Shown one piece after another: positions 3,185 through 49,629 of a DNA stretch of 64,000 nucleotides. Each line of letters begins with the position of its first letter. The stretch's first letter is position 1. This stretch comes from an uncultured Pseudomonadales bacterium. Its GTDB lineage: Bacteria > Patescibacteriota > Microgenomatia > UBA1400 > MFAQ01. The DNA lies in contig CAYHNG010000001.1 of NCBI GenBank assembly GCA_964357975.1, positions 47,007 through 111,006 on the forward strand. Direction: 5' to 3'. Below the pieces are notes generated by a model. That model was not told the DNA's origin. It did no database searches and saw only the letters and a program-made list of their open reading frames with translations. A program made the position numbers and the translations under genes.

Positions 3185-3203
3185 AAAGCCTATTATATAG
3201 ATT

Positions 3204-16181: not shown

Positions 16182-16191
16182 GATCAGCTGA

Positions 16192-17772: not shown

Positions 17773-17834
17773 GAGATTGTTATTAATTGGTGTCTATTGA
17801 TAATAAGAGATTGTAACCCTTGAAGATGAATTTT

Positions 17835-19670: not shown

Positions 19671-19677
19671 GGTACTT

Positions 19678-21566: not shown

Positions 21567-22224
21567 ATTGATTGTTAATAAGCAGTCTCAAAATTTGTGA
21601 TTCACCACCGGTATTGTTCTGGGTGACATTTTCAATACAGATTACTTTTGGTCTGAATTTTTTCCAGTCGTTACTTTGGAGAATAATAAGGTCGTAACCT
21701 TCTGTATCGACCGATAGGAAGTCGATTTTGTTTGCTTTATATTTCCTAAACAAATCTTTCATGGGTATTGTGTCAATATTCTTGATACTTTCAATGTCGA
21801 AGCCCTGTTTGACATAGTTGTCGGCTTCTTTTTTGGAGAAAGTGGAAAGCGTGTCGGTGTAGAAATTATAAAACGAAAGCTTGCCTTGTGAGCCACTAAT
21901 ACCACAGTATATATTTGTGTCTCTAGGACGAACCCTGTTAAGCTTCATATATTTGCGCATGTTTGGCTCAACATTTATCCCCCTCCATCCCTTTTGGTAG
22001 AACCTGAAGGTATTATTAAACCGAACAGGGTCGTTTGCTCCAATATCTACATAGAAACCCTTTTTTTTACCCCCTATAACCTTATCTATCAAGAGGTCTT
22101 CCTGTCTTTGACTGTATGACCTAAGAAATAATCTGTAATAGATGACGTATTTTACTTCACTATACAAATACTGAAGTGATTTCCACAGACCATAGTGATA
22201 TATTTTTTTAATTGTGTTTTTCAT
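21514..22224 (-). CDS. FkbM-family methyltransferase
   Basis: GFYVDIGANDP...FLSVDTEGYDLIIL matches the FkbM domain signature. Confidence 0.8.
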   Translation of the reverse strand: MKNTIKKIYHYGLWKSLQYLYSEVKYVIYYRLFLRSYSQRQEDLLIDKVIGGKKKGFYVDIGANDPVRFNNTFRFYQKGWRGINVEPNMRKYMKLNRVRPRDTNIYCGISGSQGKLSFYNFYTDTLSTFSKKEADNYVKQGFDIESIKNIDTIPMKDLFRKYKANKIDFLSVDTEGYDLIILQSNDWKKFRPKVICIENVTQNNTGGESQILRLLINNQYELVVNNGLNSIFRDAR

Positions 22225-23362: not shown

Positions 23363-23374
23363 AGTTGTTGGGTA

Positions 23375-24310
23375 TTAGTTCTTGAGGTTGTGAAGAAACC
23401 AGTCGTATTCTATACCGATTCCCTTTTCTAGTTCCATTTGAGGTTTCCAACCAAGCGAGAGAAGTTTAGAAACATCTAACAATTTTTTGGGGGTACCGTC
23501 CGGTTTGGTTGAGTCCCAAACTATTTTCCCTTTGAAACCGACGATTTTTTTGATAATTTGGGCAAGCTCTTTAATTTTGAGATCCACTCCAGTGCCAATG
23601 TTGATGATTTCTGAGTTATCATAATGCTCCATAAGATAGACACAAGCGTCTGCCATATCATCGACGTAAAGAAATTCTCGATAGACGTTTCCCGTTCCCC
23701 ACAATACAACCTCTTTTTTATGCCCAATTTTGGCATCATGGAATTTACGGATTAAGGCAGGAAGGACGTGAGAACTATTTAAGTCAAAGTTGTCATGTGG
23801 TCCGTAAAGATTCGTAGGCATGACAGAAATGAAATTAGTTCCATATTGCTCGTTGTAGCTTTGGCACATCTTGATACCGGCAATCTTGGAAATAGCATAA
23901 GCGTCATTAGTCTCTTCTAATGGCCCGGTAAGAAGATAAGATTCTTTGATTGGCTGTTTGGCTAGCTTAGGATAAATGCAAGAGCTCCCCAGAAACATTA
24001 GTTTCTTCACTTTATTCTTCCATGAAGCATGGATAACATTGTTTTGGATCTGAAGATTATCATAGATAAAATCAGCTTTCCTTGTTTTGTTGGCCATAAT
24101 TCCACCAACTAAAGCCGCAGCCAAAAAAACATATTCCGGTTTTTCTTTTTCAAAAAAATTTTCGACTTGTACCGAACTTTCTAAATCCAGTTCAGATCTT
24201 TTCCTAGTGATGATATTGGTATAACCATTTTTTATCAAAGACCGAACGATAGCGGTCCCAACTAAACCACTTTGACCTCCGGCAACAAAAATCTTGGCGT
24301 CTTTCTTCAT
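23375..24310 (-). CDS. fcl: GDP-L-fucose synthase (GDP-4-keto-6-deoxymannose 3,5-epimerase/4-reductase)
   Basis: [28 protein letters not shown], and an overall SDR-extended layout typical of Fcl/WcaG. Start taken at the ATG at 24310 ([14 protein letters not shown] overlap) rather than the track start at 24322. Confidence 0.9.
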
Positions 24311-25335
24311 TATTGTTTCCATTTTTCACGGCTGGATTCCGCTGGAGCAATCTTACCTCTAATCCAACCATAAATATATATAAATAGGGTAGCATAGCAG
24401 GCAATGGGGTGGAAGAGCCATGCCGAATCTGGTTTTCTGATATATCCTATGACCGTCTGGTAAAGTATGGGGAAAATTAGAATACATGAAAAGACGAACT
24501 TGAGGATACCCGTCATAAATGATCCTTCCCAATCCACATCTCTATTCTTCTTGGCTTTGTGAAAGGACATATCGTTAATGCGGCGGAACTGTTTACGGAA
24601 GAACTTGGCGGCGTCGTTTTCGACGAAAGTGTGAATAATGCCGGTATCTACTTTGGCAACTTTGATTTCACCTTCTGAGCGGATTAGTTTAAGAAGAATA
24701 TCGATGTCAAATAAATAATCTGACTGTTTGGTGGCTTTTTGGAGATATTCTTTTCGAAAAATGGTGCCATTAGCACCGATGGTGGGTATGGGCTGGTGAT
24801 TGAGGGTTATTTCCAGATAGCCATTTTTCTGTACTTCAGGAAATTTGAGATCTGTCCAACGATTTGTAATATACGAAAAACGATCGTAGTTACCAATGAA
24901 GAGACAAATGGGATCGTTCATACCCAATAAGGCGAAATAGCGCGTAAGTAATGGATCTTGCCGGCGGTAGGTATAGCGAATTGGTTCGGAAACAATAATG
25001 CTCTTGTTGGTAAAAGGTTTCACCATATCGGAGAGCCAATGACTATTGGGGAGAATGTTGTCTGAATCGATAAGAGCAATAAGGTCACCTTTAGCAGCTT
25101 TCACAGCTACGGCTTTGCCGGACTCGCCGGTTCTTAATTTGTTTGGGATAACGGTCGCTCCGTACTTTTTAGCTAAACTAACAGTATTGTCCGTCGACCC
25201 TCCGTCCCCAATTAGAATTTCAATTTTTGTTTTCGGATATTTTTGAATAGAGATGGACTTTAGGCATTTTTCCAGGACTAAACCTGAGTTCAAGGTGGGG
25301 ATGACAATGGAGATGGAGGGATGTGATGGTTTCAA
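24310..25335 (-). CDS. Glycosyltransferase family 2
   Basis: [11 protein letters not shown]...GDGGSTD...IDSDN, with a C-terminal TM anchor. TTG start at 25335. Confidence 0.85.
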
Positions 25336-25403: not shown

Positions 25404-27035
25404 TTAGTCGCTCAATACATCTCCGTGTTGGCCGAGTTGTTTGGGCGAAAAGTCCATCATGTGTCCGAGAAAGCGCCAGCCGGCCATGAAGAGGAATTTG
25501 ATATCATCCAGATGTCTGATCTCGGTGATTTTTCTTAACATGAATTTGGGACTAAGAAAAGATTTGTAGAGGTCTTGGGTTAGTTCCAACACCTGTTTCT
25601 CGGTAAGTGAAGATTTCATTACCGGCTTTCTCATGTCGTAATCATCGTAGTCTTCTGACAAAAGCCAACCCTTTTCTTTACACTCTTTCCATAGCGGGGT
25701 GCCGGGATAGGGAATCACCACAGTGGCTTGCAAGGTGTCGACATAACCTTTTTCAAAACATTTCTTGGCCAGATCGACCGTGTTCCTGGCATCCTCGTAA
25801 GTTTCCCATGGGTAGCCCATCATAATAGTGAGGTGCGGGTCTAGTCCGCCCTTCTTGGCCATGCGGACACCTTCTTCGATTTGCTCTACCTTAAGCCCTT
25901 TATCGAGATGATCTAAGGTATATTGATTGGCGGACTCCATACCATAAAGGATGAAACGGAAGTTGGCTTTGCCCATTAAATCGTAATGCTCTTGCTTGAG
26001 AGCGTTGAGACGCATATTGCACCCATAGACGACTTTCTTACTGTAGCCGGACTCGATCATCATGTTACAAAAGTCAGTCAGGGGTTTGCCGATCATAAAA
26101 GTACCGGCGTCATCAAAAATTTCCTTAACATGATACTTGTCCACGACATATTTGACTTCATCAAAAAGACGCTGTGGAGTAAACCTGCGGTATGACCCAA
26201 CCGGGTTGATGGTGTGATCCCAAACACAGAAAGTGCAACGATTCCACCAACAGTCACGACCGGAGTACATATAGGTAGCGGGGGTGTACTTGTAGTTGCC
26301 GTTGTAGACCGAATAAAGTTCCCACTTAGTTAAATCACGGTCGACAAAAGGCAACTCGTTTAGATCGTGGGCGATGCTGGGTTTGCCGGAGTTGGCATAA
26401 ACCGCCTTACCCTTTCGCTTGATTGTTTCCACCGGTTTTTGTTTGATCCGCTTGTCACCCATGCGCCACCAAACACCCGCCTCTAAAGGCGTGGGTGGGG
26501 TGAGATCCCTCGACTGCGCTCGGGATGACGAAGTAAGGTGGTCGAGCAAGCTCACAATGACGAAGTCATAATCTCCACCGGTGATCAGGTAGTCGGCTTT
26601 GCTGTGATCCATCATTTCTTCCGGAGTAAAGGTAATGTGATCCCCTACCCAAACCAAAAGGAGTTTAGGAAGTTCTTTTTTGAGAAGCTTGGTGATTTCC
26701 CAATGCTTCTTGATGATCGGAGACTTGGTCTCCACCATCAAAACATCGGGTTTAAATTGTTTTAATTCTTTCAACCACTGCTCAAAAGTCTGCTCCTCCG
26801 CTATACCATCCATCCATTTGACCTTGTAGCCATGAGCAGCTGCATTGGAGGCGGCATAAGCCGGAACCATAGGATAAATGTAGGTCTTGGCGTTGAAGTA
26901 CTGGAACTGACGGTTTTGAGACAGCAGCATGACACCTTTGTCGGAAGGCATGGGAGGGTAGCCTACAACAAGCCTTAAGGGCTTGTTGGTGTTTAGTGCT
27001 AAGGGCTTGGTAACTTTTTTGGTTTTTTTTAACAT
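25404..27035 (-). CDS. B12-binding-domain radical SAM enzyme with a non-canonical Cx4CxxC cluster motif
   Basis: N-terminal Rossmann-like B12 domain. The cluster motif YSGRDCWWNRCTFCV has C-x4-C-x2-C spacing. Carries an in-frame copy of the hairpin repeat, encoding SSSRAQSRDLT in the interdomain linker. Confidence 0.75.
   Translation of the reverse strand: MLKKTKKVTKPLALNTNKPLRLVVGYPPMPSDKGVMLLSQNRQFQYFNAKTYIYPMVPAYAASNAAAHGYKVKWMDGIAEEQTFEQWLKELKQFKPDVLMVETKSPIIKKHWEITKLLKKELPKLLLVWVGDHITFTPEEMMDHSKADYLITGGDYDFVIVSLLDHLTSSSRAQSRDLTPPTPLEAGVWWRMGDKRIKQKPVETIKRKGKAVYANSGKPSIAHDLNELPFVDRDLTKWELYSVYNGNYKYTPATYMYSGRDCWWNRCTFCVWDHTINPVGSYRRFTPQRLFDEVKYVVDKYHVKEIFDDAGTFMIGKPLTDFCNMMIESGYSKKVVYGCNMRLNALKQEHYDLMGKANFRFILYGMESANQYTLDHLDKGLKVEQIEEGVRMAKKGGLDPHLTIMMGYPWETYEDARNTVDLAKKCFEKGYVDTLQATVVIPYPGTPLWKECKEKGWLLSEDYDDYDMRKPVMKSSLTEKQVLELTQDLYKSFLSPKFMLRKITEIRHLDDIKFLFMAGWRFLGHMMDFSPKQLGQHGDVLSD
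26500..26533. repeat. Hairpin repeat copy R2 (GTGAGATccctcgactgcgctcgggATGACGAAG), in-frame inside the radical SAM CDS
   Basis: GTGAGAT and ATGACGA termini shared with R3, R4 and R6. The minus strand encodes SSSRAQSRDLT. Confidence 0.7.
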
Positions 27036-27054
27036 TTATTTTTATGTTAGTAGT

Positions 27055-27088
27055 GTGAGATTCCTCCACTTCGGTCGGAATGACAAGG
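27055..27088. repeat. Hairpin repeat copy R3 (GTGAGATtcctccacttcggtcggaATGACAAGG), intergenic between the ferredoxin and radical SAM genes
   Basis: C(UUCG)G tetraloop hairpin flanked by GTGAGAT and ATGACA; 22 of 27 internal positions match R6. Confidence 0.75.
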
Positions 27089-27089
27089 T

Positions 27090-27356
27090 TTATGGAAAAA
27101 TTTGTTTACCGGAAGAGTCTCTAATAAATATAGCAAGAATGGGACAAGATCTGGCGGCTTCTTTCACTTTCTCCAATGAGTCCCCGTCCGGATCGAGAAT
27201 AATCGCTTTGCCGTCTGTATCTCGCAGAAAAAAGGTTAAGGGTGCAACAATGGAACAAGGACCGGCAGAGATGCACTTGTTTAGATCAACTGTAATAATA
27301 TACCCATCTTTTCGGACTGCTTCGCTTTTATCTTCAGTAGTGTTAACTTGGACCAT
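27090..27356 (-). CDS. Small ferredoxin-like protein (3-Cys Fer4_13/15 type)
   Basis: 88 aa; C-x-x-A-x-x-C ... C-P pattern (KCISAGPCSIVAP ... SCPILAI). TAATG-coupled to the upstream GT2 gene. Confidence 0.55.
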   Translation of the reverse strand: MVQVNTTEDKSEAVRKDGYIITVDLNKCISAGPCSIVAPLTFFLRDTDGKAIILDPDGDSLEKVKEAARSCPILAIFIRDSSGKQIFP

Positions 27357-28399
27357 TATTGTATTAGTTTATCAGTAAACAAGAATCCTTGAAGGAAACG
27401 GACCCCGTACCAAAGATGAGTGATGAAGATAATGGGGATGGAAAGAAGAGTCTGAACGAGGATAGATATCAGATCTCGGTTCTCAGATCTCAGTTTCTTG
27501 TGTTGAACAATAGTGTTGAGGATCCAGAGGGAGTTGAGGGAGAGAATAAGAAAATAGAGAGCAAAAGAGTAGATACCAACACTACGGAGGAGAGTTATTG
27601 GTTGGAGAAATGACAATGGGAGGGAGAGTATCAAAAATAAAAAACCGAAAAGGAGGAGTGTGGGGAGGAAGTAGATGGGCCTGAGGGAAGTTTCCGGGAG
27701 AATGCGAGCAAAAAAACCTCGATGAAGACCGAAGTTACCGTTTTGTCGAAGGTGAGGAAGTAGGATGGGACGACGGTGATGATAGACGATCGACTTCGGT
27801 TCGTAAATAATTTTTTTATTTAGTTTGTGAGTAAGGTCTAAACAAAGTTTGGTATCCTCGCCCGGCCAAAAGTTGGAGTCATAGCCACCAACCTTCATGA
27901 AATCTGTTTTGCGAACAGCCAGATTCATGGAAGGATAATCGTCAACGTACTGTTTTTTACCAGGAAGAAAGCGGTAGGTATATGGACCGGCACCGATGGG
28001 AGACGCCGACGCCCACCCGGAAGCCTCCTCTCGCCAGCTAACTACCTGAGGAGTCACGCCCGGTCCGCCAACCCCAGCAATCTCGGCTTTTTGAAAATGA
28101 GGGACGAGACTGGCTAGCCAACTCTTGCTAGGAAATGCATCGTCATCGATGAAAGCCAAAATCTCTCCTTTGGCCATCTTAGCTCCGGCATCTCGTTTCT
28201 CCGCCGGCCCGACATAATGGCCATATGATTTTTGGCGAAGTTTAGGATAATCCAGATCTACATGGTAGTCGCAGACCAAAATAATTTCGAAGTTTTTGTA
28301 GGTTTGTTTCTCGATGGAGTCAAGACACTCGATCAGATACGGGTTCTTTTTTTTGTAATCGATGACGATGACGGAGACTAGGGGAGGTTTACGGTTCAT
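27356..28399 (-). CDS. Glycosyltransferase family 2 with a C-terminal membrane anchor
   Basis: LVSVIVIDYKKKN...ILAFIDDDAFP, then about four TM helices. Confidence 0.8.
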   Translation of the reverse strand: MNRKPPLVSVIVIDYKKKNPYLIECLDSIEKQTYKNFEIILVCDYHVDLDYPKLRQKSYGHYVGPAEKRDAGAKMAKGEILAFIDDDAFPSKSWLASLVPHFQKAEIAGVGGPGVTPQVVSWREEASGWASASPIGAGPYTYRFLPGKKQYVDDYPSMNLAVRKTDFMKVGGYDSNFWPGEDTKLCLDLTHKLNKKIIYEPKSIVYHHRRPILLPHLRQNGNFGLHRGFFARILPETSLRPIYFLPTLLLFGFLFLILSLPLSFLQPITLLRSVGIYSFALYFLILSLNSLWILNTIVQHKKLRSENRDLISILVQTLLSIPIIFITHLWYGVRFLQGFLFTDKLIQ

Positions 28400-28462
28400 G
28401 GTTATTTGACAAATGTTGATTGTAACTGTATTATCTATTTAGTTAATCTCGCGGATGGGTGT

Positions 28463-29104
28463 TTACACCGGTTCAGCGAGATTTTCGCGTTTTAGCTTCA
28501 CCCAACTGGTTTTATATACCTTGACTTTCTTGGAAATAATACGAAAGAAGTTAGACCTTTTTGTAATTCTCGCTAAATAGCTTCCTGAGACCATGTCAGC
28601 ACAATTTACCGCCCTTTCTCTCTGGCTGTCAACGTGTCTTATCTTTGCGATTCTCGGATATTTACGGAAGATGTATTCATTAAACTCGTTTTGAGATCTC
28701 TCATTGTGGAAATGTCGGTCAAATGTAATCTCCATTTCGGACTTGTTGAATGATTTCATTACTTTGTTGATTAGTTTACTAGCCGCCATCGAATAGTTTA
28801 GAGGGCTATCCTGAACTTTCTTGTTACTCTTGTTTATTTCCAAGACGTAAACTTTAATCTCAAGATTACTAAGCTCCGTCAAATATTTGGTTTTGATATT
28901 ATCACTAGCTTTGTAATACTTTATTTCAGACATTATTTTATGTTTTCTACTTGATGACTTTCTAAGTTTGTTGGCTATTCCCACGAGGTCTCCTTGCTCT
29001 CTTGTTGCTACAGCACCGAGTATAAAATATTTATCTCTAGTGTCCGGTAATGTCCCCGACTCATCAATAAAGATATATATTTTCTTCTTGTGAGCAGGTG
29101 TCAT
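28463..29104 (-). CDS. DUF3800-family protein
   Basis: N-terminal IYIFIDESG motif characteristic of DUF3800. ATGA overlap with the upstream GT2 gene. Confidence 0.5.
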   Translation of the reverse strand: MTPAHKKKIYIFIDESGTLPDTRDKYFILGAVATREQGDLVGIANKLRKSSSRKHKIMSEIKYYKASDNIKTKYLTELSNLEIKVYVLEINKSNKKVQDSPLNYSMAASKLINKVMKSFNKSEMEITFDRHFHNERSQNEFNEYIFRKYPRIAKIRHVDSQRERAVNCADMVSGSYLARITKRSNFFRIISKKVKVYKTSWVKLKRENLAEPV

Positions 29105-29961
29105 TCTGTTTTTGAATGGTAGCGGAGTTTAAGATTGGGATCTGATTCCCAGTGGTCTGAGCCACCATCGTCGTAATAACGAAGAATGTAAGTTCGATAA
29201 ATAATGGCGAAATAGTCGATGAAATAATTCCTCACTGATGACAGATCGACGTTACTGGCAAAGTTGTGAGTGATCTCCACCGGAGATTCATAAATTTTCT
29301 TGAAGCCAAGGTGGTTGGCGACAGTAAGAATTTCCAGATCAAAAGCCCAGCGCTTGACGATGAGGCGAGGAAGAACTTCGACCAGAACATCTCGACTAAA
29401 GACTTTAAGGCCTGTTTGGGTATCGGAGACATTCAGGCCAAAAACAAACTTGGTGGCCTTTTGGACGAGATAGGAGAGGAGTTTTCTTCGCCACGGATAG
29501 AACACCTTACTGGCGTGATGGCGTTTACTGCCAATAATGATATCCGCCTCGTACCACTTCATGTGTTCCAGTGCCAAGCCGATTCCTTTTGCATTTAAAT
29601 CGTTGCCCGCGTCGATAAAAGCGATTGTTCCGCCTTTGGCGCGGGCCATGCCATAACGCACCGCATAACCCTTGCCCTTGTTTACCTCATAGGTATAGAT
29701 TCGGCAGTTCTTGGCTTTGAACGACTTGGCCAGCTCTGCCGTTTTGTCCTTACTGTTTTTTTGTCCGTCAACAACGCAAATTAACTCATATGGACGATTC
29801 AGAAGATCTAGATAAAGCTTAATGGTAGAAAGATCGTTGTAAATAGTTTTGCAGTTATATGCCGGGACAATTACCGAGAGGAGAGAAGGATCAACTAAGC
29901 CGTGTGATTTAATTTTCTTTTTGGCCTTTTTGGGCATGAGGAGATTATAATCGATATACAC
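29101..29961 (-). CDS. GT2 polyprenol-phosphate glycosyltransferase (Dpm1/GtrB-like)
   Basis: SVIVPAYN, VVDGQKNSKDKT, GKGYAVRYGMARAKGGTIAFIDAGNDL, SDTQTGLKVFSRDVL fit the Dpm1/GtrB family. Start is the GTG at 29961, or alternatively the ATG at 29937. Confidence 0.7.
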   Translation of the reverse strand: MYIDYNLLMPKKAKKKIKSHGLVDPSLLSVIVPAYNCKTIYNDLSTIKLYLDLLNRPYELICVVDGQKNSKDKTAELAKSFKAKNCRIYTYEVNKGKGYAVRYGMARAKGGTIAFIDAGNDLNAKGIGLALEHMKWYEADIIIGSKRHHASKVFYPWRRKLLSYLVQKATKFVFGLNVSDTQTGLKVFSRDVLVEVLPRLIVKRWAFDLEILTVANHLGFKKIYESPVEITHNFASNVDLSSVRNYFIDYFAIIYRTYILRYYDDGGSDHWESDPNLKLRYHSKTE

Positions 29962-29970
29962 GTTGATGGA

Positions 29971-30018
29971 GTGAGATTGCCACGGTTCGGAGTACCGAAA
30001 CTCGCAATGACGAAAAGG
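29971..30018. repeat. Hairpin repeat copy R4 (GTGAGATtgccacGGTTCGGagtaCCGAAACtcgcaATGACGAAAAGG), intergenic between the flippase and Dpm1-like genes
   Basis: Same GTGAGAT and ATGACGA termini around a longer GGUUCGG/CCGAAAC hairpin. Lies immediately upstream of the GTG start at 29961. Confidence 0.7.
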
Positions 30019-30019
30019 G

Positions 30020-31270
30020 TTATTGGTTTTTGGTGTGGGAGAAGAGGAAAAATAAAAGAGAGGAGACTAGGCAAAGTTGGATAGCGAAGTTGGACCAGAT
30101 GACGAGCGAGAAGGAATCACGAAAAACATAAAAAAGTAATGGCTGGACTACTGTGGCGGCCAGAAGAAAGAGATTGGCACGAGGACGGCCGGTGGCCATA
30201 AGGTAAGCAACCAGAAACTGACCAAGAGCCAGGAAAACCATAGTGAAAGCAAAAATAGAGAGAAAGGGAGCGGCCTCCAGATAAGCGGCACCGGAAAGTA
30301 TCCGAATAATCAGAGTCGGGAACAAACCAAAAATGCTCGCGCCGATAAAACCAAAAAGGACGATCACAGCCCCTAGCTTGACAAAAATTGTTTTGGCCGA
30401 ACCAAAAGCCGCATGGCGATGAGAAGCCATCGGAAGAACCAAAGAGATAATGGGGGTTAATCCAAAAAGAATCATCCGTCCCAAAATGGACAAGGAAGAA
30501 TAGATACCGGAGAGATGAGGGTTGAACAAGGCTCGGACCATGAGGACATCGGTAGAAATCAGCGACATGGTACCGAGCGCATAAATAAAGCTATAGCCCA
30601 TAAAGCCGCCCAAAGAAAAGTGAGGAGAATTCTTTATGACGATCTTCGGATAAACTGAAGGACGAATGTTGAAGAAAATTATTATGGAAGTGACGACGCT
30701 ACCCAAAAGCTGACCAATGACGGCGCCGGTGGCTCCAAAGCCAAATTTGATGAGTAGAATGGAAAAAACAATGGTCAGAAAAATACTGACTAAACCCAAG
30801 AAGGTTTGGAAAACAAACCTTTGGTAAGCCACCAAATAAGAACCGATGATAGTTTGGTAGAGGGAAATAAAGACACTAATTCCTAAAACAATAAAGGCAA
30901 GTGAGTGGGCCTTGAAGATAAAGGATAAAGGCCCGGACAAAAGAATCAGAGCAAGTCCCAAAAAAACAGCGATGGGGGTAACGGTGCGAAGGAGGTAATG
31001 AAAAAAGAGATTGATGGAAGTTCTGTCGTCTTTTCCTTTGAACTCAGCAACGTATTTAGTGATCACGGTAGCGATAGTGCCGGTAGGAATGCCTAAGAGA
31101 TACGTCAGGGAAAGATAAGACAAGAATTCACCGTACTCTGCCGGAGCCAGGAAGCGAAGAAGAATGAGGTGGAAAAAATAGCGAAAAACACTTAAGGCAA
31201 AACTACCAAAATAAAAGATGGCGGTGGACCGAGCTGTAGGTGTAGAAATCGCACGAAAAATTCGCTTCAT
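30020..31270 (-). CDS. Oligosaccharide/polysaccharide flippase (Wzx-like, MOP superfamily)
   Basis: 416 aa, about 12 TM helices; PST-family layout. Confidence 0.65.
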   Translation of the reverse strand: MKRIFRAISTPTARSTAIFYFGSFALSVFRYFFHLILLRFLAPAEYGEFLSYLSLTYLLGIPTGTIATVITKYVAEFKGKDDRTSINLFFHYLLRTVTPIAVFLGLALILLSGPLSFIFKAHSLAFIVLGISVFISLYQTIIGSYLVAYQRFVFQTFLGLVSIFLTIVFSILLIKFGFGATGAVIGQLLGSVVTSIIIFFNIRPSVYPKIVIKNSPHFSLGGFMGYSFIYALGTMSLISTDVLMVRALFNPHLSGIYSSLSILGRMILFGLTPIISLVLPMASHRHAAFGSAKTIFVKLGAVIVLFGFIGASIFGLFPTLIIRILSGAAYLEAAPFLSIFAFTMVFLALGQFLVAYLMATGRPRANLFLLAATVVQPLLFYVFRDSFSLVIWSNFAIQLCLVSSLLFFLFSHTKNQ

Positions 31271-31300
31271 GGCTAATATAGTTTACGCTATTATTAATGC

Positions 31301-32713
31301 ATGAAGGCATGGAAAAAATATTGGGTGTGGCCGGTCGCGATACTTCTGATGGGAATGTTTTGGTGGATGAGGTTTAGCGATATCAGAACATCTTTTTTCT
31401 TTTTCAATGATATGGGAAGGGACTCTCTAGTGTTATGGGATTGGAAAGCCACAGGTAAACCTCCCCTCTTGGGACCTCAGGCCAGTGCAATGCCAATGAA
31501 CCAAAGTGCTGTTTATTATTACATGCTGTATCCATTGTTTCTGATGTTCGGAGGGGCGACAGTGAGCGCTTTATACACAAATGCATTACTGTACATCGTG
31601 TGTTTTGTGGCGGGATTAGTACTGCTCAAGAATCACAACAAGCTTCGGGTGGCGCTACTGGTGTCATTTTTTCTGGCCACTATTCACCCACAGTACATAA
31701 TTCAAAACAGATTTGTCTGGAATCCTTCATTTATACCTCCGCTCCTATCAGTATCGTTTATTAGTTTGTATTTGCTGACAGAAAAATTTAACTTGCGGAG
31801 ATTGATGGTTTTTTCGATCTCGATGGCTTTGGCGGTAGCGATCCATTTTCCGGCCGGTCCGTTCATGTTGGCGGCTATGACATACATGGCCTTATTTTGG
31901 AAAAAGAACAGAGTCTACTCAATTCTGGTTTTAATTGGTTTTTTGATATTCTTTAATCTGCCTTCTTTGGTGTTTGAAGCCAGACACGACCTTCTCATCA
32001 CCAAAAGTTTATTCAGTCACCAGTGGATTGGCACACAACAATTCACCATAGTTCAAAACATAGATAGATTGGCTAACTTTACCTTTTCGTTGGAGAACAA
32101 GACTATTGATTTGTTTTTATTGGTAACCGTACTAATCTATGGAATTTTTGTATTTATAAAAAAACCAAAAGAATTTGAGGGAATGTTGGGATTTTTATTT
32201 GTGTTTTCCTTTTTAGTCACCATTGCCAGCAAAATGGCTTTCCATTCTCATTATATTTTCGGATTCACTACCTTGATATTTTTACTGATTTCCGGACTTC
32301 CAAAAAACTTTAAATGGATGGTTATTGTGGTTTTTGTCTTGGTTTATTTGAATCCAAATGTGACCAAACAGTATTTTGTGACCGCCCCCAGAACAGTAGA
32401 ACAAATGGAGCAATGTTTCGCCAAAGTATGTGGAGAAATTAAGGATCCTATCTTTGTCTCGACTCAAGCCGGGTTTCACTCATTTCACAATGGTCCGGAA
32501 CACAGATTCCTGATGAAGAAAGCCGGATGCAATGTGAAATATGTGGAAGACCCTTCTCAAATAGCTAATTTGATGGCGGTAGTGCTGGATGACTCCAATT
32601 ATGTACAAGGGGCAACCAACTATAACGAATTGACACTCTTTGGAAAAAGCAAGGAAATCAAAAGGTTTACCTGTCAAGATAATTTTGGAGTGGTGATATT
32701 GGAGAGAGATTAA
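31301..32713 (+). CDS. ArnT/GT83-like GT-C membrane glycosyltransferase
   Basis: FFFNDMGRDSLVLWDW...GPQASAMPMNQSAVYYY N-terminal motif set; polytopic. Confidence 0.6.
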   Translation: MKAWKKYWVWPVAILLMGMFWWMRFSDIRTSFFFFNDMGRDSLVLWDWKATGKPPLLGPQASAMPMNQSAVYYYMLYPLFLMFGGATVSALYTNALLYIVCFVAGLVLLKNHNKLRVALLVSFFLATIHPQYIIQNRFVWNPSFIPPLLSVSFISLYLLTEKFNLRRLMVFSISMALAVAIHFPAGPFMLAAMTYMALFWKKNRVYSILVLIGFLIFFNLPSLVFEARHDLLITKSLFSHQWIGTQQFTIVQNIDRLANFTFSLENKTIDLFLLVTVLIYGIFVFIKKPKEFEGMLGFLFVFSFLVTIASKMAFHSHYIFGFTTLIFLLISGLPKNFKWMVIVVFVLVYLNPNVTKQYFVTAPRTVEQMEQCFAKVCGEIKDPIFVSTQAGFHSFHNGPEHRFLMKKAGCNVKYVEDPSQIANLMAVVLDDSNYVQGATNYNELTLFGKSKEIKRFTCQDNFGVVILERD

Positions 32714-34117
32714 CTAAATTTCCAGGTCACGGAGCAGATTTATTTTTATTGAGCTTTTCTCGTTTGATTTTTGGGCGCCGTAAATCCACCCGAAAGCTTC
32801 GTCTGCAGGACACGATACCGGTTTACCGGCATATGACCGGAAGAGATAGCACCAGCCACCGTATGCTGAGTAGCCAACTTCATCTTTTGTTCCTAAAATG
32901 ATGGAATATGGTTGGTTTTGAATATCTTTGGTAACTTTGATAATTCTTTCCTTTCGGGACACCAAACCATACTTTGATTGTTCACAAGTGAAAATGGTAA
33001 CTGCAGAGGAGAGAACAAAAATAAGAATTAGGAACCAGGAAATTTTCGGGTTTAATGAAGAAAGAAGTATCCCCGAAAAAACGGAAAATAGGGTGAAGAA
33101 GCTGAGGAGGTAGTATTCGATCACGTTACCGGGATAAAGAAGATACGAGATAATTGAAATAATAAGCATCGCAAAAAGAAGCAAGAATTTTTTGTCTCTC
33201 TTGGCTCTAAAAAAAGAAAAAACTAAGATTCCTAAAGAAAAGGATGACAGAAGAAAGACGGAACCGGTGGGTACCCCCGCGCCTCCAAAGCCCATTTCTG
33301 CCTGAACTGACGTCCGAGGACGTAGATACCAGAAACGACTAAGCGAGTTCCAGGTGGTGGATAAACGGCTTGGCAATCTATCTATTATCGAGATATCGCC
33401 TTGTGCTGTGAGCATGCGAAGTGGGGTACGCAGATTGTCGAAATTATGGACCTTGTCGAAGACAAGAAGTGGAGAAATCAAAATTAGATATACGACGATG
33501 GAAGATATCCACGTACTAAAATTGATTCTCTTGAAGGATTTAAAAACGAGAAAGAAAATTACCGGCCAGAACATGAGCAGTGAAAGGTGAATATGGAGCG
33601 CCGTAGCCATAATGGCTGAAACGAGAACAAACCAACGAGTATTTTTCTGAGATTTGTATAAAGAAAATAACAACCAAACCGTAAGTAGCGGAATGGGAGA
33701 TGGATTCCAGAAACGACGATCAAAGAAATTCAAGAGAGGAGATCCTGCGTAAAAAAATGAAGAAAAAATGGCTACCGATGGTGAAAATAGTCGAGATGAA
33801 ACAAAGTATATGGAAATAACCGTAGCCAGACCGAGTAGGGGGGCGAAATAGGCAAGAATAAGAGGATCTCCTCCGGAGAAGAAGAATAAGAGAGCGTTTA
33901 AATAGGTGAACGCAGGCCCGAGATAAAAGCCGGTATTTCCGGCGCTTACTCCAATCCAGATGGGGTGAAAATCCTGAACCTGTGACCAAGCAAGAAAGGC
34001 TTGATATTCTTCATCAAAATTGAAACTAAACCACTCACCTGCTTTCCAAAAACGGAGAAAGAGAAGAAAGACAAATAATAAAACCGGAAGAATGTGAACC
34101 GGTTTTATTTTTGTCAT
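32714..34117 (-). CDS. ArnT/GT83-like GT-C membrane glycosyltransferase
   Basis: FSFNFDEEYQAFLAW...GNTGFYLGPAFTYL resembles the ArnT DE-x-RYAE motif; polytopic. Confidence 0.6.
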   Translation of the reverse strand: MTKIKPVHILPVLLFVFLLFLRFWKAGEWFSFNFDEEYQAFLAWSQVQDFHPIWIGVSAGNTGFYLGPAFTYLNALLFFFSGGDPLILAYFAPLLGLATVISIYFVSSRLFSPSVAIFSSFFYAGSPLLNFFDRRFWNPSPIPLLTVWLLFSLYKSQKNTRWFVLVSAIMATALHIHLSLLMFWPVIFFLVFKSFKRINFSTWISSIVVYLILISPLLVFDKVHNFDNLRTPLRMLTAQGDISIIDRLPSRLSTTWNSLSRFWYLRPRTSVQAEMGFGGAGVPTGSVFLLSSFSLGILVFSFFRAKRDKKFLLLFAMLIISIISYLLYPGNVIEYYLLSFFTLFSVFSGILLSSLNPKISWFLILIFVLSSAVTIFTCEQSKYGLVSRKERIIKVTKDIQNQPYSIILGTKDEVGYSAYGGWCYLFRSYAGKPVSCPADEAFGWIYGAQKSNEKSSIKINLLRDLEI

Positions 34118-34138
34118 TAGAATTAGTTTAGCATTCAG

Positions 34139-35242
34139 CTATATTAATCTTTCCCAGGGATACTCCGAATGGCCGAAGTGGCCGTACCTGGCAGTTTTTT
34201 GATAAATGGGCTGTAGCAAAGCGAGACCGGAAATGATGCCGGCGACGGAAAGATCCAACAGCTTCCAGGCAAAATCTTCGATGATTTTTTGATCTTTTTT
34301 GTTGGTGCCATAAGTTTCTATGGCCTTTCCCACCGGATCTTTGACACCGATGGCATAGGCCAGCTGGACTTCGCAACGATCGGCCAATTTGGCGGCCACG
34401 ATATTCTTGGCAATAAATCTGGCGGCATAGGCCCCTGACCGATCGACCTTCGTAAGATCCTTGCCCGAAAAACAACCTCCGCCGATTCTGCCCATACCAC
34501 CATAGGTATCGACGACAATTTTCCGGCCGGTAACTCCCGTATCCGAAGCAGGACCGCCAATTTCCCAAGCACCTGTGCCGTTGAAGATCACATTTTTGAG
34601 GGAGATTTGGGGCAGGTGATATTTTTCGAGAAGCGGGACAATTGAAAGTTTGTAGAGATACTCTTTGATTTCCTCGCGGGCCATCTTCGGATCTTGGGGT
34701 TTGGCTAAGACAATTTTCTCGACCGAAATCGGGCGACCATTTGCGTATTTAACGGTGACTTGAGATTTTCCGTCCGGGCGGAGAAAAGGTAACTCTTTCA
34801 CAAACAACAAATCCATGGACTCTGCGAGCTCGTGGGCCAGAGTAATGGGGAGCGGCATGAGCTGTGCGGTCTCATTGGTGGCGTAACCAAACATCATACC
34901 CTGATCCCCTGCTCCCCCATCGTCAACGCCAACGGCAATATCTTTGGACTGTTCATGGATGTAAACCTCGATATCGGTTTGAGGACCAAAGCGGTATTCG
35001 TCTCGGGTATAGCCTAAGTCCCGAATAACTTTTTTGGCTAGGCTTTGGTAATCGAGTGAACGGGGACAGGTAATCTCCCCGGCCATAATCAGCTTGTTGG
35101 TAGTCACAAGCGATTCACAAGCCACACGAGAATGTGGATCGGCCTGGAGAGCGGCATCTAATACGGCATCCGAGATCTGATCACAGATCTTATCCGGGTG
35201 GCCGGCGCAAACGGACTCAGACGAAAAGAGGGAATAGTTCAT
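34139..35242 (-). CDS. metK: S-adenosylmethionine synthetase
   Basis: SESVCAGHPDKICDQISDA, GAGDQGMMFGYA and GGGCFSGKD hallmark motifs. Confidence 0.95.
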   Translation of the reverse strand: MNYSLFSSESVCAGHPDKICDQISDAVLDAALQADPHSRVACESLVTTNKLIMAGEITCPRSLDYQSLAKKVIRDLGYTRDEYRFGPQTDIEVYIHEQSKDIAVGVDDGGAGDQGMMFGYATNETAQLMPLPITLAHELAESMDLLFVKELPFLRPDGKSQVTVKYANGRPISVEKIVLAKPQDPKMAREEIKEYLYKLSIVPLLEKYHLPQISLKNVIFNGTGAWEIGGPASDTGVTGRKIVVDTYGGMGRIGGGCFSGKDLTKVDRSGAYAARFIAKNIVAAKLADRCEVQLAYAIGVKDPVGKAIETYGTNKKDQKIIEDFAWKLLDLSVAGIISGLALLQPIYQKTARYGHFGHSEYPWERLI

Positions 35243-35345
35243 TTTATTTTTCCTCTAATTGATAACAGAGGCTTGTCATTTTGGCACCGCGACCTGAATT
35301 GGCTCGGTTGTCGTCCGCCTATGGCGGAACTCTTGACAGCTAGGA
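35243..35345 (-). ncRNA. Candidate SAM riboswitch (SAM-I/SAM-IV clan) in the metK 5' leader
   Basis: The minus-strand RNA reads GCUGUCAAGAGUUCCGCCAUAGGCGGACGACAACCGAGCCAAUUCAGGUCGCGGUGCCAAAAUGACAAGCCUCUGUUAUCAAUUAGAGGAAAAAUAAAAAUG. It contains UCAAGAG (P1/J1-2), CAACC...GGUGCC (the P3 strands of SAM-I/IV) and AUGACAAGC, which can close P1 against GCUGUCA. A downstream CCUCU...AGAGG hairpin can sequester the probable Shine-Dalgarno sequence. Confidence 0.45.
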
Positions 35346-35364
35346 TAATATTAACACGAAATGA

Positions 35365-36495
35365 TTAGGCTACGAAGTAGCCGCGTGTGAAGAAAATGAT
35401 GGAGAGAATGGATAAAACGATGCAAGTGGCATAGAGACTGTACTTAATGAAGGGATGTTGTTTCTCGATCCAAAACGCCATGACCATGAACACCGGGAAA
35501 AGCACTAATGTAAATCGGGGCATGCTCATAAAGGTACCTGAAAATGTGGGCAGCAAGAAAGACAGCAAAACAAATAGCCAGTAAGAGAAACGAATTCTTC
35601 TAAAGAAAATAATTAAAGCGGTGACAATCAACACGGCCGAAAACAACTCCAAGACGACGGTAAAGTAGAGAGGGTCCCAGTCGGTAAAAATTAACATTTT
35701 GAAATAGCGGAAGAAGACCTGGTGGAGAAGAATTAGTTTGTCTACTGTCCGGCCACCAAAGACAGATTGAATGTGGAAAAAGAATAATGGATCTCCGGTT
35801 TTGAGATATTGAAAACGCATAAAAGAAAAAAGCCCTAGTGGAGGAAGAAGTAACCACAGAGCAGAAAAATTAACAGACTTTTTTATATCTTTGCCGTACA
35901 TGAGCCAGAACTCGTAAATAATGGAAGGCCAGAGAAAGATACCGGTGATCCGGGTGGCCGAAGCGATCGCGGCCACAACACAGGCCAGAAAAAAGTGTTG
36001 GCGGCGAATAAGGTAAAAAGTGAGAACCGTCAGTAGAAGAAACAAAGACTCGGTGTAGACCGAGCCAAAAAAGAAGGCCGTGGGAAATAAGAGTATCAAC
36101 ATAATAGTAAGGCGAGAGACCTTCTTAGTGAAGTCCAGCGCGGTTAGACGATAGAGGAAATAAAGAGCCAGGATGAGATAGACATGAGAGAGAAAGAGCC
36201 CCGAAGCCAGGTAATTGCCGAATAGATTGAAAGTTCTTACTGTCCAAGGATAAACCGGGAAGAAAGCATAGTCCATGTCGGTCTTGTGCTGATAGCCATA
36301 ACCAAACTGAGCAAGGTCAAGATAATGAAGGCCATCAAAGTTGGACCACATGGAAAAAATGTTTCCGACAGAGGGCTTTTCGGTGAGACTCGTGAAACGG
36401 GTACGGGGAGGCAGAAGAAACATGGCCGGGAGAGCGATGAGAATAATCAGAACTCGCCAACCTAAAACGAGTTTGAAGATTTCTTTGATGGACAT
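35365..36495 (-). CDS. Polytopic membrane protein, putative GT-C mannosyltransferase-like (PIG-V/DUF2029-like)
   Basis: 376 aa, about 10 TM helices, conserved HYLDLAQFGYGY loop; assignment tentative. Confidence 0.4.
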   Translation of the reverse strand: MSIKEIFKLVLGWRVLIILIALPAMFLLPPRTRFTSLTEKPSVGNIFSMWSNFDGLHYLDLAQFGYGYQHKTDMDYAFFPVYPWTVRTFNLFGNYLASGLFLSHVYLILALYFLYRLTALDFTKKVSRLTIMLILLFPTAFFFGSVYTESLFLLLTVLTFYLIRRQHFFLACVVAAIASATRITGIFLWPSIIYEFWLMYGKDIKKSVNFSALWLLLPPLGLFSFMRFQYLKTGDPLFFFHIQSVFGGRTVDKLILLHQVFFRYFKMLIFTDWDPLYFTVVLELFSAVLIVTALIIFFRRIRFSYWLFVLLSFLLPTFSGTFMSMPRFTLVLFPVFMVMAFWIEKQHPFIKYSLYATCIVLSILSIIFFTRGYFVA

Positions 36496-49605: not shown

Positions 49606-49629
49606 GATAGTCAATTAGAATTATATGCG

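Follow-up and report, generated by a model that had tools for sequence, protein, structure and literature searches.

A conserved cassette around a predicted polyprenyl-phosphate glycosyltransferase and a Wzx-like transporter in a glycosyltransferase-rich Candidatus Collierbacteria locus

Introduction

In Gtr-type three-component systems (GtrB synthase, GtrA flippase and a GT-C glycosyltransferase; also CsbB/GtcA/YfhO), a cytoplasmic Dpm1/GtrB-class GT2 enzyme, a flippase and a GT-C are encoded together. Other transporter classes have been proposed for the flipping step: GacK, a Wzx homologue, is the proposed flippase of GlcNAc-P-undecaprenol (10.1101/180810), and a MATE-family flippase has been proposed for undecaprenyl-phosphate ribofuranose (PMC11127046). 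In haloarchaea, dolichol monophosphate carries a glycan that AglJ starts and AglG extends, with the MOP-type proteins Agl15 and AglR as proposed flippases (PMC3871713).

Here we describe a locus from a groundwater Candidatus Collierbacteria (CPR) genome. The window, by which we mean the whole 64-kb stretch of DNA that was analysed, holds ~53 genes, 28-29 of which encode glycosyltransferases. An earlier note on this DNA had proposed a complete and self-contained system of synthase, flippase and GT-C transferases; we find a synthase-flippase pairing that is strongly supported by gene order and fusion, and a conserved unit that appears to be larger than this pair.

Results

The interval 28463-31270 comprises three minus-strand genes, encoding a MOP-superfamily transporter of the PST (Wzx-like) family, a GT2 enzyme that we term GT2a, and a DUF3800 protein. 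The interval had been described as a synthase and a flippase; both genes are present, but the third, unrelated gene (28463-29104, minus strand; PF12686, 45.6 bits), which overlaps GT2a by 4 bp, went unmentioned. As it is missing from 68 of 68 related loci, the closest relative L003 included, we regard the DUF3800 gene as a lineage-specific insertion between GT2a and a second GT2 gene, GT2b, that stands outside the pathway. The transporter gene lies directly upstream of GT2a on the same strand, separated by an 82-bp gap, which agrees, as far as sequence can show, with the operon proposed previously; scans for promoters and terminators yielded no usable signal, and the operon is putative. The same 416-aa transporter is encoded on an ENA Hainich groundwater contig. 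In the window its gene is the first of 16 that point in the same direction, among them three more soluble glycosyltransferases and numerous tailoring enzymes. Downstream of the cassette, Pfam assigns the co-directional glycan-building and tailoring genes at 15396-25335 (minus strand; short gaps or overlaps) to a GT2, an NDP-sugar epimerase/dehydratase, a GT4, FkbM and SAM methyltransferases, a GT2, an AsnB-type amidotransferase, a second B12 radical-SAM enzyme and a methyltransferase; their order is the same on ENA contig L001.

GT2a (29101-29937, minus strand; 278 aa; PF00535, 69 bits) is a polyprenyl-phosphate glycosyltransferase-like GT2 of the Dpm1/GtrB/ArnC class. Translation almost certainly begins at the ATG at 29937 and not at the first codon of the full open reading frame, 29101-29961; the ENA contig is called in this way, and all homologues agree. 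The assignment of this frame to the Dpm1/GtrB type in the earlier note held up under profile and structure searches. Queried against all solved structures, the GT2a family profile placed PfDPMS (5.5e-10), GtrB (8e-9) and ArnC (1e-6) first, and the best 25 Foldseek matches of the GT2a model were ArnC, DPMS and GtrB only, at TM-scores to the reference enzymes of only ~0.5-0.65. K146/R147, R159 and S163, all invariant, correspond in the alignment to Arg117, Arg131 and Ser135 of DPMS, which bind the lipid phosphate. Among NCBIfam models PpgS scored best (49.6 against a cut-off of 370) and AglJ third, all matches falling far below cut-offs. No phmmer match was detected between GT2a and the other eight GT2s of the window, and its close and fused relatives are all unnamed metagenomic proteins. 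GT2a possesses no hydrophobic segment and no membrane helix.

The nucleotide-sugar site of GT2a departs from that of DPMS. The metal motif is DAGND, and DAG(N/S)D across the CPR clade, in place of the canonical DAD; the position of the metal-binding Asp91 of DPMS is an invariant Gly. The guanine-binding Asp39 is likewise replaced by an invariant Gly, as in the 'DG' motif that GtrB and other UDP-sugar enzymes carry. The two substitutions make GDP-mannose an unlikely donor, and the Asp39 replacement casts doubt on the source annotation, 'dolichol-phosphate mannosyltransferase', which is probably wrong about the sugar.

Beyond the DUF3800 gene lies GT2b (27356-28399, minus strand; 347 aa; PF00535, 59.9 bits), a second cytoplasmic GT2 with four C-terminal hydrophobic peaks, predicted to be four membrane helices. 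Its NCBIfam matches are weak (MftF-, AglG- and EpsD-like), and its PDB matches are generic elongating GT2s, for example GalT1 and PglI; we propose that GT2b extends the GT2a product, anchors GT2a, or both. An 88-aa ferredoxin (27090-27356, minus strand; precomputed Pfam Fer4_15/Fer4_13 on the identical ENA gene), a homologue of which follows a fused GT2a-GT2b in locus L034, is likely the electron donor of the B12-binding radical-SAM enzyme encoded next (25404-27035, minus strand; PF04055 and PF02310). Of the cassette members, the radical-SAM enzyme shows the highest conservation, its orthologues outside Patescibacteria, archaea among them, being 43-57% identical. Orthologues sit directly 3' of GT2b in CPR, Omnitrophota, Latescibacterota, Gemmatimonas, Chlamydiae, Lentisphaerae and archaea; across 16 non-Microgenomates loci, radical SAM domains occur in 8 and B12-binding domains in 7 of 94 neighbours.

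Two kinds of evidence tie these genes together: i) gene order, the transporter and GT2a being coupled in 31 of 65 related genome loci (30 adjacent, with the transporter immediately upstream, and 1 fused) and GT2b being coupled to GT2a in 30 of 65 (24 adjacent downstream, 6 fused), and ii) fusion, since 149 distant GT2a homologues, taken as 50%-cluster representatives, include 38 transporter-GT2a, 20 GT2a-GT2b and 4 transporter-GT2a-GT4 proteins. The 38 transporter-GT2a fusions have no GT2b in the same polypeptide, and some loci, such as L042, L044 and L058, possess the transporter and GT2a pair with no GT2b nearby. Cassette loci were found in CPR, Dormibacterota, Gemmatimonas, Omnitrophota, Latescibacterota, Chlamydiae, Lentisphaerae, and DPANN and other archaea. 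The three-component reading thus stands as to the pairing of synthase and flippase (31/65 loci, 38/149 fusions) and falls short as to the extent of the unit, which appears to be a widespread, often fused four-gene cassette of transporter, GT2a, second cytoplasmic GT2 and B12 radical-SAM enzyme. The coupling counts for transporter, GT2a and GT2b, the fusions, and the conservation of the radical-SAM enzyme in other phyla and archaea go beyond the earlier note and are new here.

The transporter (30020-31270, minus strand; Pfam Polysacc_synt_3), our proposed flippase, has ~12 predicted membrane helices. PST families are its only Pfam matches and its fold is MOP, which bears out the earlier proposal of a MOP-family flippase rather than a MATE or other transporter. 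Structure comparison alone places MATE transporters slightly above WzxE, and the Polysacc_synt_3 score, 24.5 bits where 23 is the cut-off, is marginal; the latter would suit a protein that is no glycolipid flippase at all, being instead a MATE-like small-molecule exporter or the lipid II flippase of the cell, its link to GT2a having some other explanation. We consider this highly improbable: MATE and MurJ Pfam models are matched neither by the window protein nor by 25 homologues, 11 and 9 of which match the two PST models; the cassette occurs in archaea (L039, L041, L056), which are without peptidoglycan; and in 38 representatives transporter and glycosyltransferase form a single polypeptide.

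Given its Wzx-like transporter, the locus might also belong to an ordinary Wzx-dependent pathway, in which a phosphoglycosyltransferase encoded elsewhere makes a polyprenyl-pyrophosphate sugar for extension by GT2a, GT2b and the GT2 and GT4 enzymes encoded downstream, and the transporter flips the finished unit, the Dpm1/GtrB likeness being general GT2 similarity. The transporter-led 16-gene run has a layout typical of repeat-unit clusters, and GT2a scores below every curated family cut-off and is without the canonical DAD motif. However, neither a phosphoglycosyltransferase (52 window proteins scanned) nor a recognisable Wzy was detected in the 64 kb, and no phosphoglycosyltransferase appears in the top 25 families of the 94 cassette neighbours at 16 diverse loci. 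The best sequence and structure matches of GT2a are exclusively lipid-monophosphate glycosyltransferases, and the invariance of the residues equivalent to the lipid-phosphate-binding positions of DPMS points the same way. To our knowledge, no flippase fused to a non-initiating glycosyltransferase has been described. Taken together, these observations make the Wzx-dependent account improbable.

For GT-C enzymes we count 15 supported genes in the window and one more weakly supported; the '17 or more' claimed previously was an upper-range guess. The count includes one copy cut by the left window edge and leaves out 1442-3313 and 62668-63948, neither of which received a family assignment. Eleven GT-C genes match Pfam PMT_2, GT87 or YfhO, while those at 45416-47119, 31301-32713 and 59954-61588 were added by paralogy or iterated profiles. 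With 9 GT2 and 4 GT4/GT1-type genes besides, the total of 28-29 comes close to the ~31 glycosyltransferases claimed for the 64 kb, and the high density is upheld; since 29 glycosyltransferase genes were thought worth remarking on in an entire published Microgenomates genome (PMC7143001), the density in the window is real and high.

The GT-C most tightly linked to the cassette is a 376-aa PMT_2/PIG-V-like protein (35365-36495, minus strand; PMT_2 23.6 bits, below the 26.1 cut-off), whose orthologues directly precede the transporter gene at about a dozen CPR loci; PMT_2 is matched by 11 and PIG-V (Mannosyl_trans2) by 5 of 17 orthologues. Two GT-Cs lie between the cassette and metK, one on the minus strand (32714-34117; PMT_2, 31.7 bits) and one on the plus strand (31301-32713), placed in the same cluster by iterated profile search and sharing the loop-1 acidic motif. 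Six diverged paralogues, 25-33% identical, form a tandem array (40377-51312, minus strand) with PMT_2 matches in five copies, the sixth (45416-47119) being placed by paralogy (E 1e-30 to 1e-37); each carries a loop-1 'DE' motif, and a 274-aa membrane protein (48790-49614) lies inside the array. Comparable arrays are found upstream of the cassette in loci L013, L014, L017 and L022. Further along are a GT87-type enzyme (52016-53266, minus strand; PF09594, 28.7 bits), a PMT_2-type enzyme (53327-54877, plus strand; PF13231, 29.1 bits), a YfhO-type enzyme (57731-59986, plus strand; PF09586, 63.2 bits) and a PMT_2-cluster enzyme recognised by iterated profiles (59954-61588, minus strand). Towards the left edge lie a PMT_2 GT-C (5674-7140, minus strand; PF13231, 34.8 bits), the weakly supported candidate, an 813-aa, weakly AftD-like polytopic protein (7149-9590, minus strand; PF11847 in two distant homologues) with homologues near the cassette in L017, L019, L034, L041 and L055, and the N-terminal part of a PMT_2-cluster GT-C cut by the window edge (1-490, minus strand), which reaches 52 bits with the family profile of 59954-61588 and matches 53327-54877 by phmmer (4e-9).

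Discussion

On balance we favour a model in which 25404-31270 is one copy of a conserved cassette, composed of the PST-family flippase, GT2a, GT2b, the ferredoxin and the B12 radical-SAM enzyme, that makes and exports a polyprenyl-monophosphate-linked glycosyl donor. From gene families, the GT2a fold and residue conservation, synteny and domain fusions, we infer the individual catalytic steps and their order, the sugar, the size of the flipped species (a single sugar or a longer glycan) and the GT-Cs that use it. On the cytoplasmic side, GT2a would use a nucleotide sugar, probably a UDP-sugar, to glycosylate polyprenyl phosphate, and would be kept at the membrane by the four C-terminal helices of GT2b, by the flippase, or by both; GT2b would probably add a second sugar, and the radical-SAM enzyme would probably modify the lipid-linked sugar. 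The PST transporter would then flip the product to the outer face, where the 376-aa GT-C and probably many of the other ~14 GT-Cs would transfer it onto surface acceptors. The terms complete and self-contained go too far, as donor-sugar specificity, acceptor and lipid-carrier synthesis are not identifiable in the window.

A simpler scheme deserves weighing, in which the product of GT2a is a polyprenyl-phosphate monosaccharide that the MOP transporter flips and whose sugar the GT-Cs each add to different acceptors, with GT2b, the radical-SAM enzyme and the downstream glycosyltransferases building a separate glycan that may be the acceptor. Transporter and GT2a form the invariant core, as illustrated by the 38 fusions with no GT2b in the same polypeptide and by the loci with no GT2b nearby. 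Studied members of the PMT_2, PIG-V-like, YfhO and GT87 families, moreover, use single-sugar lipid donors, with which a two-sugar or modified donor is an awkward fit. MOP-type flippases of single-sugar lipids also have precedents (10.1101/180810; PMC11127046). Yet a second cytoplasmic glycosyltransferase is joined to GT2a in one polypeptide at 6 loci and, among the representatives, in 20 GT2a-GT2b and 4 transporter-GT2a-GT4 proteins, and GT2b is the neighbour of GT2a at 24 more loci; fusion usually denotes consecutive or cooperative steps, and the most conserved member, the radical-SAM enzyme, is left without a role. The larger unit and the frequent fusion of GT2a to a second GT2 or a GT4 thus fit poorly with a one-sugar Gtr-type scheme, which we rate as possible but unlikely, and the flipped species is probably more elaborate than one sugar.

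Compared with Gtr-type systems, the likeness lies in the component classes: GtrB is among the nearest structures of GT2a, and the window encodes one YfhO-type and many PMT_2-type GT-Cs. The window is, however, without a GtrA-family small flippase, possessing a 12-helix PST/MOP transporter instead; GT2a is without membrane helices, where GtrB has two, and carries DAG(N/S)D rather than DAD; the cassette adds a second cytoplasmic GT2 and a B12 radical-SAM enzyme; and ~15 GT-C genes replace one. The Streptococcus pyogenes GacI/GacJ/GacK/GacL system (group A carbohydrate side chain) and the Citrobacter pentofuranose system likewise combine a lipid-phosphate sugar synthase, a MOP-superfamily flippase and a GT-C, the likeness seen here being one of component class. 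They are the direct precedent, in that flipping of a lipid-monophosphate sugar has been proposed there for a Wzx- or MATE-type protein, flippase activity being putative in those systems too, and the requirement of GacI for its small membrane partner GacJ would be analogous to the proposed anchoring of GT2a; unlike the cassette, they have no fused or adjacent second glycosyltransferase or radical-SAM enzyme.

With Dpm1 (PfDPMS, 5MLZ), GT2a has in common the GT-A fold and the equivalents of the lipid-phosphate-binding Arg/Arg/Ser, and its amphipathic helices are located at the positions of the DPMS interface helices; Foldseek-aligned identity to PfDPMS chains is only ~19-23%, and Asp39 and Asp91 are both Gly. 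Human DPM1 (with DPM3) is a soluble catalytic subunit in need of a membrane partner (PMC5526996), as GT2a would be. N-glycosylation in Haloferax volcanii (AglJ, AglG and further enzymes, Agl15/AglR, AglD/AglS) likewise starts with a Dpm1-like GT2 on a lipid monophosphate, and proceeds by GT2 extension and a proposed MOP-type flip. The matches of GT2a to the AglJ model and of GT2b to the AglG model are weak and far below cut-offs; the cassette occurs in archaea too, but the host of the window is a bacterium, an AglB/STT3 oligosaccharyltransferase was not detected in the window, and the radical-SAM member and gene fusions have no Agl counterpart. The pathway appears to be a variant of the known three-component and archaeal Agl-type pathways.

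Gene organization

Approximately 53 genes fill the 64-kb window with nearly no spacer between them. Neither tRNAs nor Rfam matches were detected in the window, the latter including a cobalamin riboswitch near the B12 enzymes. Region 28463–31270 holds three open reading frames, all on the minus strand. These encode a Wzx-like transporter of the MOP superfamily (30020–31270, 416 aa), a family 2 glycosyltransferase (hereafter GT2a), and a DUF3800 protein (28463–29104) that overlaps GT2a by 4 bp and lies between it and a second, membrane GT2 (GT2b; 27356–28399, minus strand, 347 aa). The GT2a frame spans 29101–29961; its start in homologues and in the ENA gene call is the ATG at 29937 (MPKK..., 278 aa). 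The window belongs to a genome of Candidatus Collierbacteria (Microgenomates, CPR). The nearest GT2a homologues carry the names Collierbacteria or Microgenomates, and an identical transporter protein is encoded by a metagenome contig from Hainich groundwater (ENA ERZ1292624). None of the 68 related loci has the DUF3800 gene, not even that of the closest relative (89% identical), and it thus looks like a recent insertion in an otherwise conserved gene order.

A promoter scan of 15–33 kb returned 49 promoter-like sites against 39 ± 6.7 expected; over the same range, a terminator scan gave 24 sites against 15.8 ± 3.7 expected, and none of those on the minus strand, the gene strand, was intergenic. 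Neither scan helped to define operons. Throughout 30000–52000, where the single plus-strand gene is 31301–32713, both skews of the plus strand are positive (GC, +0.04 to +0.22; AT, +0.02 to +0.31), which may stem from membrane proteins rich in Phe, Leu and Ile; the 16–22 kb region is likewise minus-strand coding, yet its skews are negative. The 623-aa membrane protein encoded at 1442–3313 (minus strand), with a weak C-terminal IPT/TIG-like match (E 0.012), adjoins a membrane-anchored staphylococcal-nuclease homologue (3204–3740, minus strand, 89.6 bits) in surroundings otherwise made up of glycosylation genes.

Classification of GT2a

As a single sequence, GT2a is assigned by Pfam only to the GT2 family (PF00535, 69 bits), and it scores below every NCBIfam cut-off. 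The polyprenyl-phospho-GalNAc synthase PpgS ranks first (49.6 bits, cut-off 370) and AglJ third, with the ArnC and dolichyl-phosphate hexose transferase models lower, among mostly generic GT2 models. Scores this far below the cut-offs of the characterised models place GT2a, as judged from its sequence, in a separate and uncharacterised subfamily, apart from PpgS, AglJ, ArnC and the dolichyl-phosphate hexose transferases. A profile built from 25 homologues and searched against all PDB sequences recovered the dolichyl-phosphate mannose synthase (DPMS) PfDPMS at 42 bits (5.5e-10), GtrB at 38.5 (8e-9) and ArnC at 31.5 (1e-6), with other GT2 enzymes at or below 29 bits; by a moderate margin, GT2a is nearer to proven lipid-phosphate GT2 enzymes than to other members of the family. 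The AF2 model (pLDDT 80, pTM 0.81) displays the alternating strands and helices of a GT-A fold, and a Foldseek search with it returned exclusively ArnC, DPMS and GtrB at ranks 1–25, followed by glucosyl- and mannosyl-3-phosphoglycerate synthases. The earlier note had taken the GT2 at 29101–29961 to be of the Dpm1/GtrB type, and the profile and fold searches, together with the invariant lipid-phosphate residues described below, bear this out.

In DPMS, Arg117, Ser135 and Arg131 have been assigned to binding of the dolichyl phosphate group (PMC5526996). In a sequence alignment that takes the PDB chain's 22-residue offset into account, and was made without a bound-ligand model, Arg117, Arg131 and Ser135 of PfDPMS correspond to K146/R147, R159 and S163 of GT2a, which are invariant in 25/25 homologues; GT2a is thus predicted to keep the lipid-phosphate-binding residues of DPMS. 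The canonical DAD motif is absent from GT2a, which carries D117-A-G119-N-D121 in its place; neither G119 nor D121 varies within the CPR clade, and DPMS Asp91 aligns to the motif Gly and DPMS Gln93 to its Asp. This metal motif differs by group, reading DAG(N/S)D in the CPR clade, DSGME in WWE3-like relatives and DADLD in non-CPR homologues. The guanine-binding Asp39 of DPMS is replaced by an invariant Gly, and the 'VDG' motif of GT2a resembles 'NDGS' in GtrB, a UDP-glucose enzyme, which suggests a UDP-sugar as a more likely donor than GDP-mannose.

No hydrophobic segment or membrane helix was found in GT2a. Amphipathic helices at residues 159–177 and 240–257 are positioned where the interface helices of DPMS lie, and the fusions described below suggest GT2b or the transporter as a candidate membrane partner. 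The window encodes eight further GT2 enzymes, to none of which GT2a has phmmer similarity. We considered whether another of them could be a Dpm1-like enzyme and rejected this, as the best matches of all eight are generic elongating GT2 models.

A PST-family transporter

The 416-aa transporter has approximately 12 membrane helices in a MOP fold. Taken alone it is marginal in Pfam (PF13440, Polysacc_synt_3, 24.5 bits against a cut-off of 23), and the family emerges from its relatives: among 25 homologues, 11 matched PF01943 (Polysacc_synt), nine matched PF13440 and none matched another family, while fused relatives score up to 67 bits on PF13440. Assignment to the PST family comes from sequence; structure confirms the MOP superfamily and not the family, as the position of the transporter inside the superfamily could not be resolved by fold searches. 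Searches against PDB sequences, with the single sequence or with a profile, gave zero matches. A different transporter family, such as MATE, would have undone the earlier proposal of a flippase at this position; PST models were matched and MATE and MurJ models were not, in the transporter and the 25 homologues alike, so that the putative flippase stands as a PST-family protein. A lipid II flippase was also considered and rejected, since the cassette that contains the transporter occurs in archaea as well.

Synteny and fusions define a conserved cassette

We collected 68 genome loci encoding GT2a relatives and searched their open reading frames with profiles; counts refer to the 65 loci where the GT2a match was solid. 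In 30/65 the transporter is directly upstream of GT2a on the same strand, in 1/65 it is fused to GT2a, and a further 14 loci have it within 10 kb. A homologue of GT2b, which consists of a catalytic domain and four C-terminal helices, is directly downstream of GT2a in 24/65 and fused to it in 6/65. GT2b as a processive synthase was entertained and rejected, a QxxRW-type motif not being seen by eye. The loci are drawn from CPR lineages, Dormibacterota, Gemmatimonas, Omnitrophota, Latescibacterota, Chlamydiae, Lentisphaerae, Actinomycetota, and DPANN and other archaea; the cassette thus occurs in many phyla and in bacteria as well as archaea, often with its members joined in one polypeptide.

When 1.84 billion cluster representatives were searched exhaustively, 362 GT2a relatives were recovered at E ≤ 1e-30. 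Among the best 149 of these 362, which were typed, there were 38 transporter–GT2a fusions, 20 GT2a–GT2b fusions, four transporter–GT2a–GT4 triple fusions and two TPR–GT2a–GT2b proteins, all of them metagenomic. The triple fusions, with a PST transporter, are the representatives P0286, P0332, P0386 and P0392 (~1060–1090 aa); P0357 and P0361 are the TPR proteins. Fusion of transporter and GT2a argues strongly that the transporter would handle the product of GT2a. GT2a is also frequently fused to a second cytoplasmic glycosyltransferase, which argues for a flipped species that would often contain more than one sugar.

Downstream of GT2b, a small ferredoxin gene (27090–27356, minus strand) is followed by that of a B12-binding radical-SAM enzyme (25404–27035, minus strand). 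Orthologues occupy the same position in loci across phyla, with 49–57% identity in other bacterial phyla and 43–45% in archaea; the 43–57% of this enzyme compares with ~21–29% for the transporter, and the radical-SAM enzyme is the most conserved partner in the cassette. The related loci with orthologues include L033, L041, L049, L052, L055, L056, L060 and L068. Against PDB sequences, the enzyme gave only weak matches, to 9ccb and AprD4. For the radical-SAM enzymes Cds and HpnJ, which remodel the head groups of lipid-linked sugars, C-methylation or ring contraction has been proposed (PMC13459092). As a speculative precedent, these enzymes suggest that modification of a lipid-linked sugar by the cassette enzyme could likewise be a C-methylation or a ring contraction.

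Among 94 cassette neighbours in 16 non-Microgenomates loci, Pfam families were led by GT2 (9), GT4 (8), radical SAM (8) and B12-binding (7), followed by NDP-sugar epimerase/dehydratase (6), PMT_2 (3) and PMT (2). Phosphoglycosyltransferase families were absent from the top 25 of this tally, and around the cassette in other loci Wzy polymerases did not figure among the top families either.

The GT-C complement

Membrane glycosyltransferases (GT-C) were counted when polytopic, matching a GT-C family model or paralogous to a protein that does, and with a first outer loop that carries an acidic motif. Of the 17 or more GT-C enzymes claimed earlier, the evidence carries 15 (11 from Pfam, three from paralogy and one fragment at the left edge), with one further weak case. 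The Pfam group comprises 11 proteins matching PMT_2, GT87 or YfhO. Its weakest member, the 376-aa GT-C at 35365–36495 (minus strand), has 17 orthologues, 11 of which match PMT_2 and five PIG-V, confirming it as a GT-C at the family level by sequence; its family gave zero matches to PDB sequences. Six GT-C genes form a tandem array at 40377–51312, the copies being 25–33% identical and each having a 'DE' motif in loop 1; 45416–47119 is a clear paralogue inside this array. The products of 31301–32713 and 59954–61588 enter a PMT_2-like cluster through iterated profiles, one more copy is truncated where the window begins on the left, and 7149–9590 is weakly AftD-like. A Pfam scan at relaxed stringency (E up to 10) gave no usable match for the two further GT-C candidates, 1442–3313 and 62668–63948, or for 48790–49614, 51309–52013 and 56615–57523. 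With nine GT2 and four GT4-type enzymes, the grand total of glycosyltransferases is 28–29; literature searches on CPR glycosyltransferases turned up no more than a brief mention of a Microgenomates genome with 29 glycosyltransferase genes.

The tightest link between a GT-C and the cassette is that of the 376-aa GT-C, which is the immediate upstream neighbour of the transporter, in turn contiguous with GT2a, in ~12 CPR loci. In the window, where metK and two additional GT-C genes separate it from the transporter, all three fall within ~6.5 kb (29101–36495). The proposed genetic linkage of synthase, flippase and GT-C enzymes is upheld by this arrangement.

Several features of the GT-C region are recorded here as observations. 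The housekeeping genes metK (SAM synthetase, 34139–35242, minus strand) and gltX (glutamyl-tRNA synthetase, 36495–38177, minus strand) sit amid the GT-C genes; in relatives, a gap of ~1.8 kb separates the array from the 376-aa GT-C at the equivalent place. Two short polytopic proteins in or beside the array (48790–49614 and 51309–52013, minus strand) have an 'HNKTD' motif in common, and could represent remnants of GT-C enzymes or else accessory subunits; a related 'HNK' occurs mid-protein in the GT-C at 45416–47119. The 302-aa product of 56615–57523 (minus strand), with an N-terminal hydrophobic segment and a long Glu/Lys-rich low-complexity region, lacks a Pfam match and may be a secreted or surface protein, conceivably a target of glycosylation.

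A model for the cassette

From the observed families, fold, conserved residues, synteny and fusions, we infer the following chemistry. GT2a, predicted from sequence to transfer a sugar to polyprenyl phosphate, would do so at the inner face of the membrane, held there by GT2b and/or the transporter. GT2b, here probably together with the radical-SAM enzyme, would elaborate the lipid-linked sugar. Fusion and adjacency to GT2a suggest that the PST transporter would then flip the lipid-linked glycan, and GT-C enzymes would consume the flipped product outside. The earlier note had read the locus as a self-contained polyprenol-phosphate-sugar system; the note was largely right, and the evidence backs its core idea of a synthase matched with a flippase to feed GT-C enzymes. 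The unit is larger and odder than a simple Gtr-type system. Only tentatively, and with the balance of probability against it, we raise the broader reading that the four-gene cassette of PST transporter, GT2a, GT2b and B12 radical-SAM enzyme constitutes an unrecognised pathway of two domains of life, in which a radical-SAM-modified sugar or disaccharide is built on polyprenyl monophosphate and exported, in Microgenomates supplying ~15 GT-C enzymes. If true, the cassette would be the central supply line for these surface-decorating enzymes.

Bacteria of the CPR have very small genomes, have not been cultured and are believed to live in attachment to other cells. More than half of this 64-kb window from a CPR bacterium is given to glycosyltransferases, and knowledge of how the lipid-linked donors are produced and exported would be the entry point to the surface chemistry of such bacteria. 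An undescribed modification of a lipid-linked sugar is suggested by the conserved B12 radical-SAM partner, and the cassette is small enough for expression in E. coli.

Comparison with known systems

Gtr-type three-component systems are a near analogy, differing in their GtrA-family flippase; no window protein has a Pfam match to this small flippase and the remaining gaps are too small for one. The Wzx/Wzy-dependent repeat-unit pathway employs an initiating phosphoglycosyltransferase and the Wzy polymerase, and neither was detected by Pfam in the 64-kb window, though the rest of the genome could encode one. Near analogies are also found in the Citrobacter pentofuranose system, where the flippase is of the MATE family, and in streptococcal GacI/J/K/L, where the Wzx homologue GacK is proposed to flip GlcNAc-P-undecaprenol. 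In haloarchaeal Agl pathways, glycans are built on dolichol monophosphate by AglJ and then AglG, and the MOP-type Agl15 and AglR are used. The flipping step is still proposed, and not proven, for GacK, AglR and the Citrobacter flippase; fusions of a transporter to a Dpm1/GtrB-class synthase provide 'Rosetta stone' evidence that such transporters would handle lipid-monophosphate sugars.
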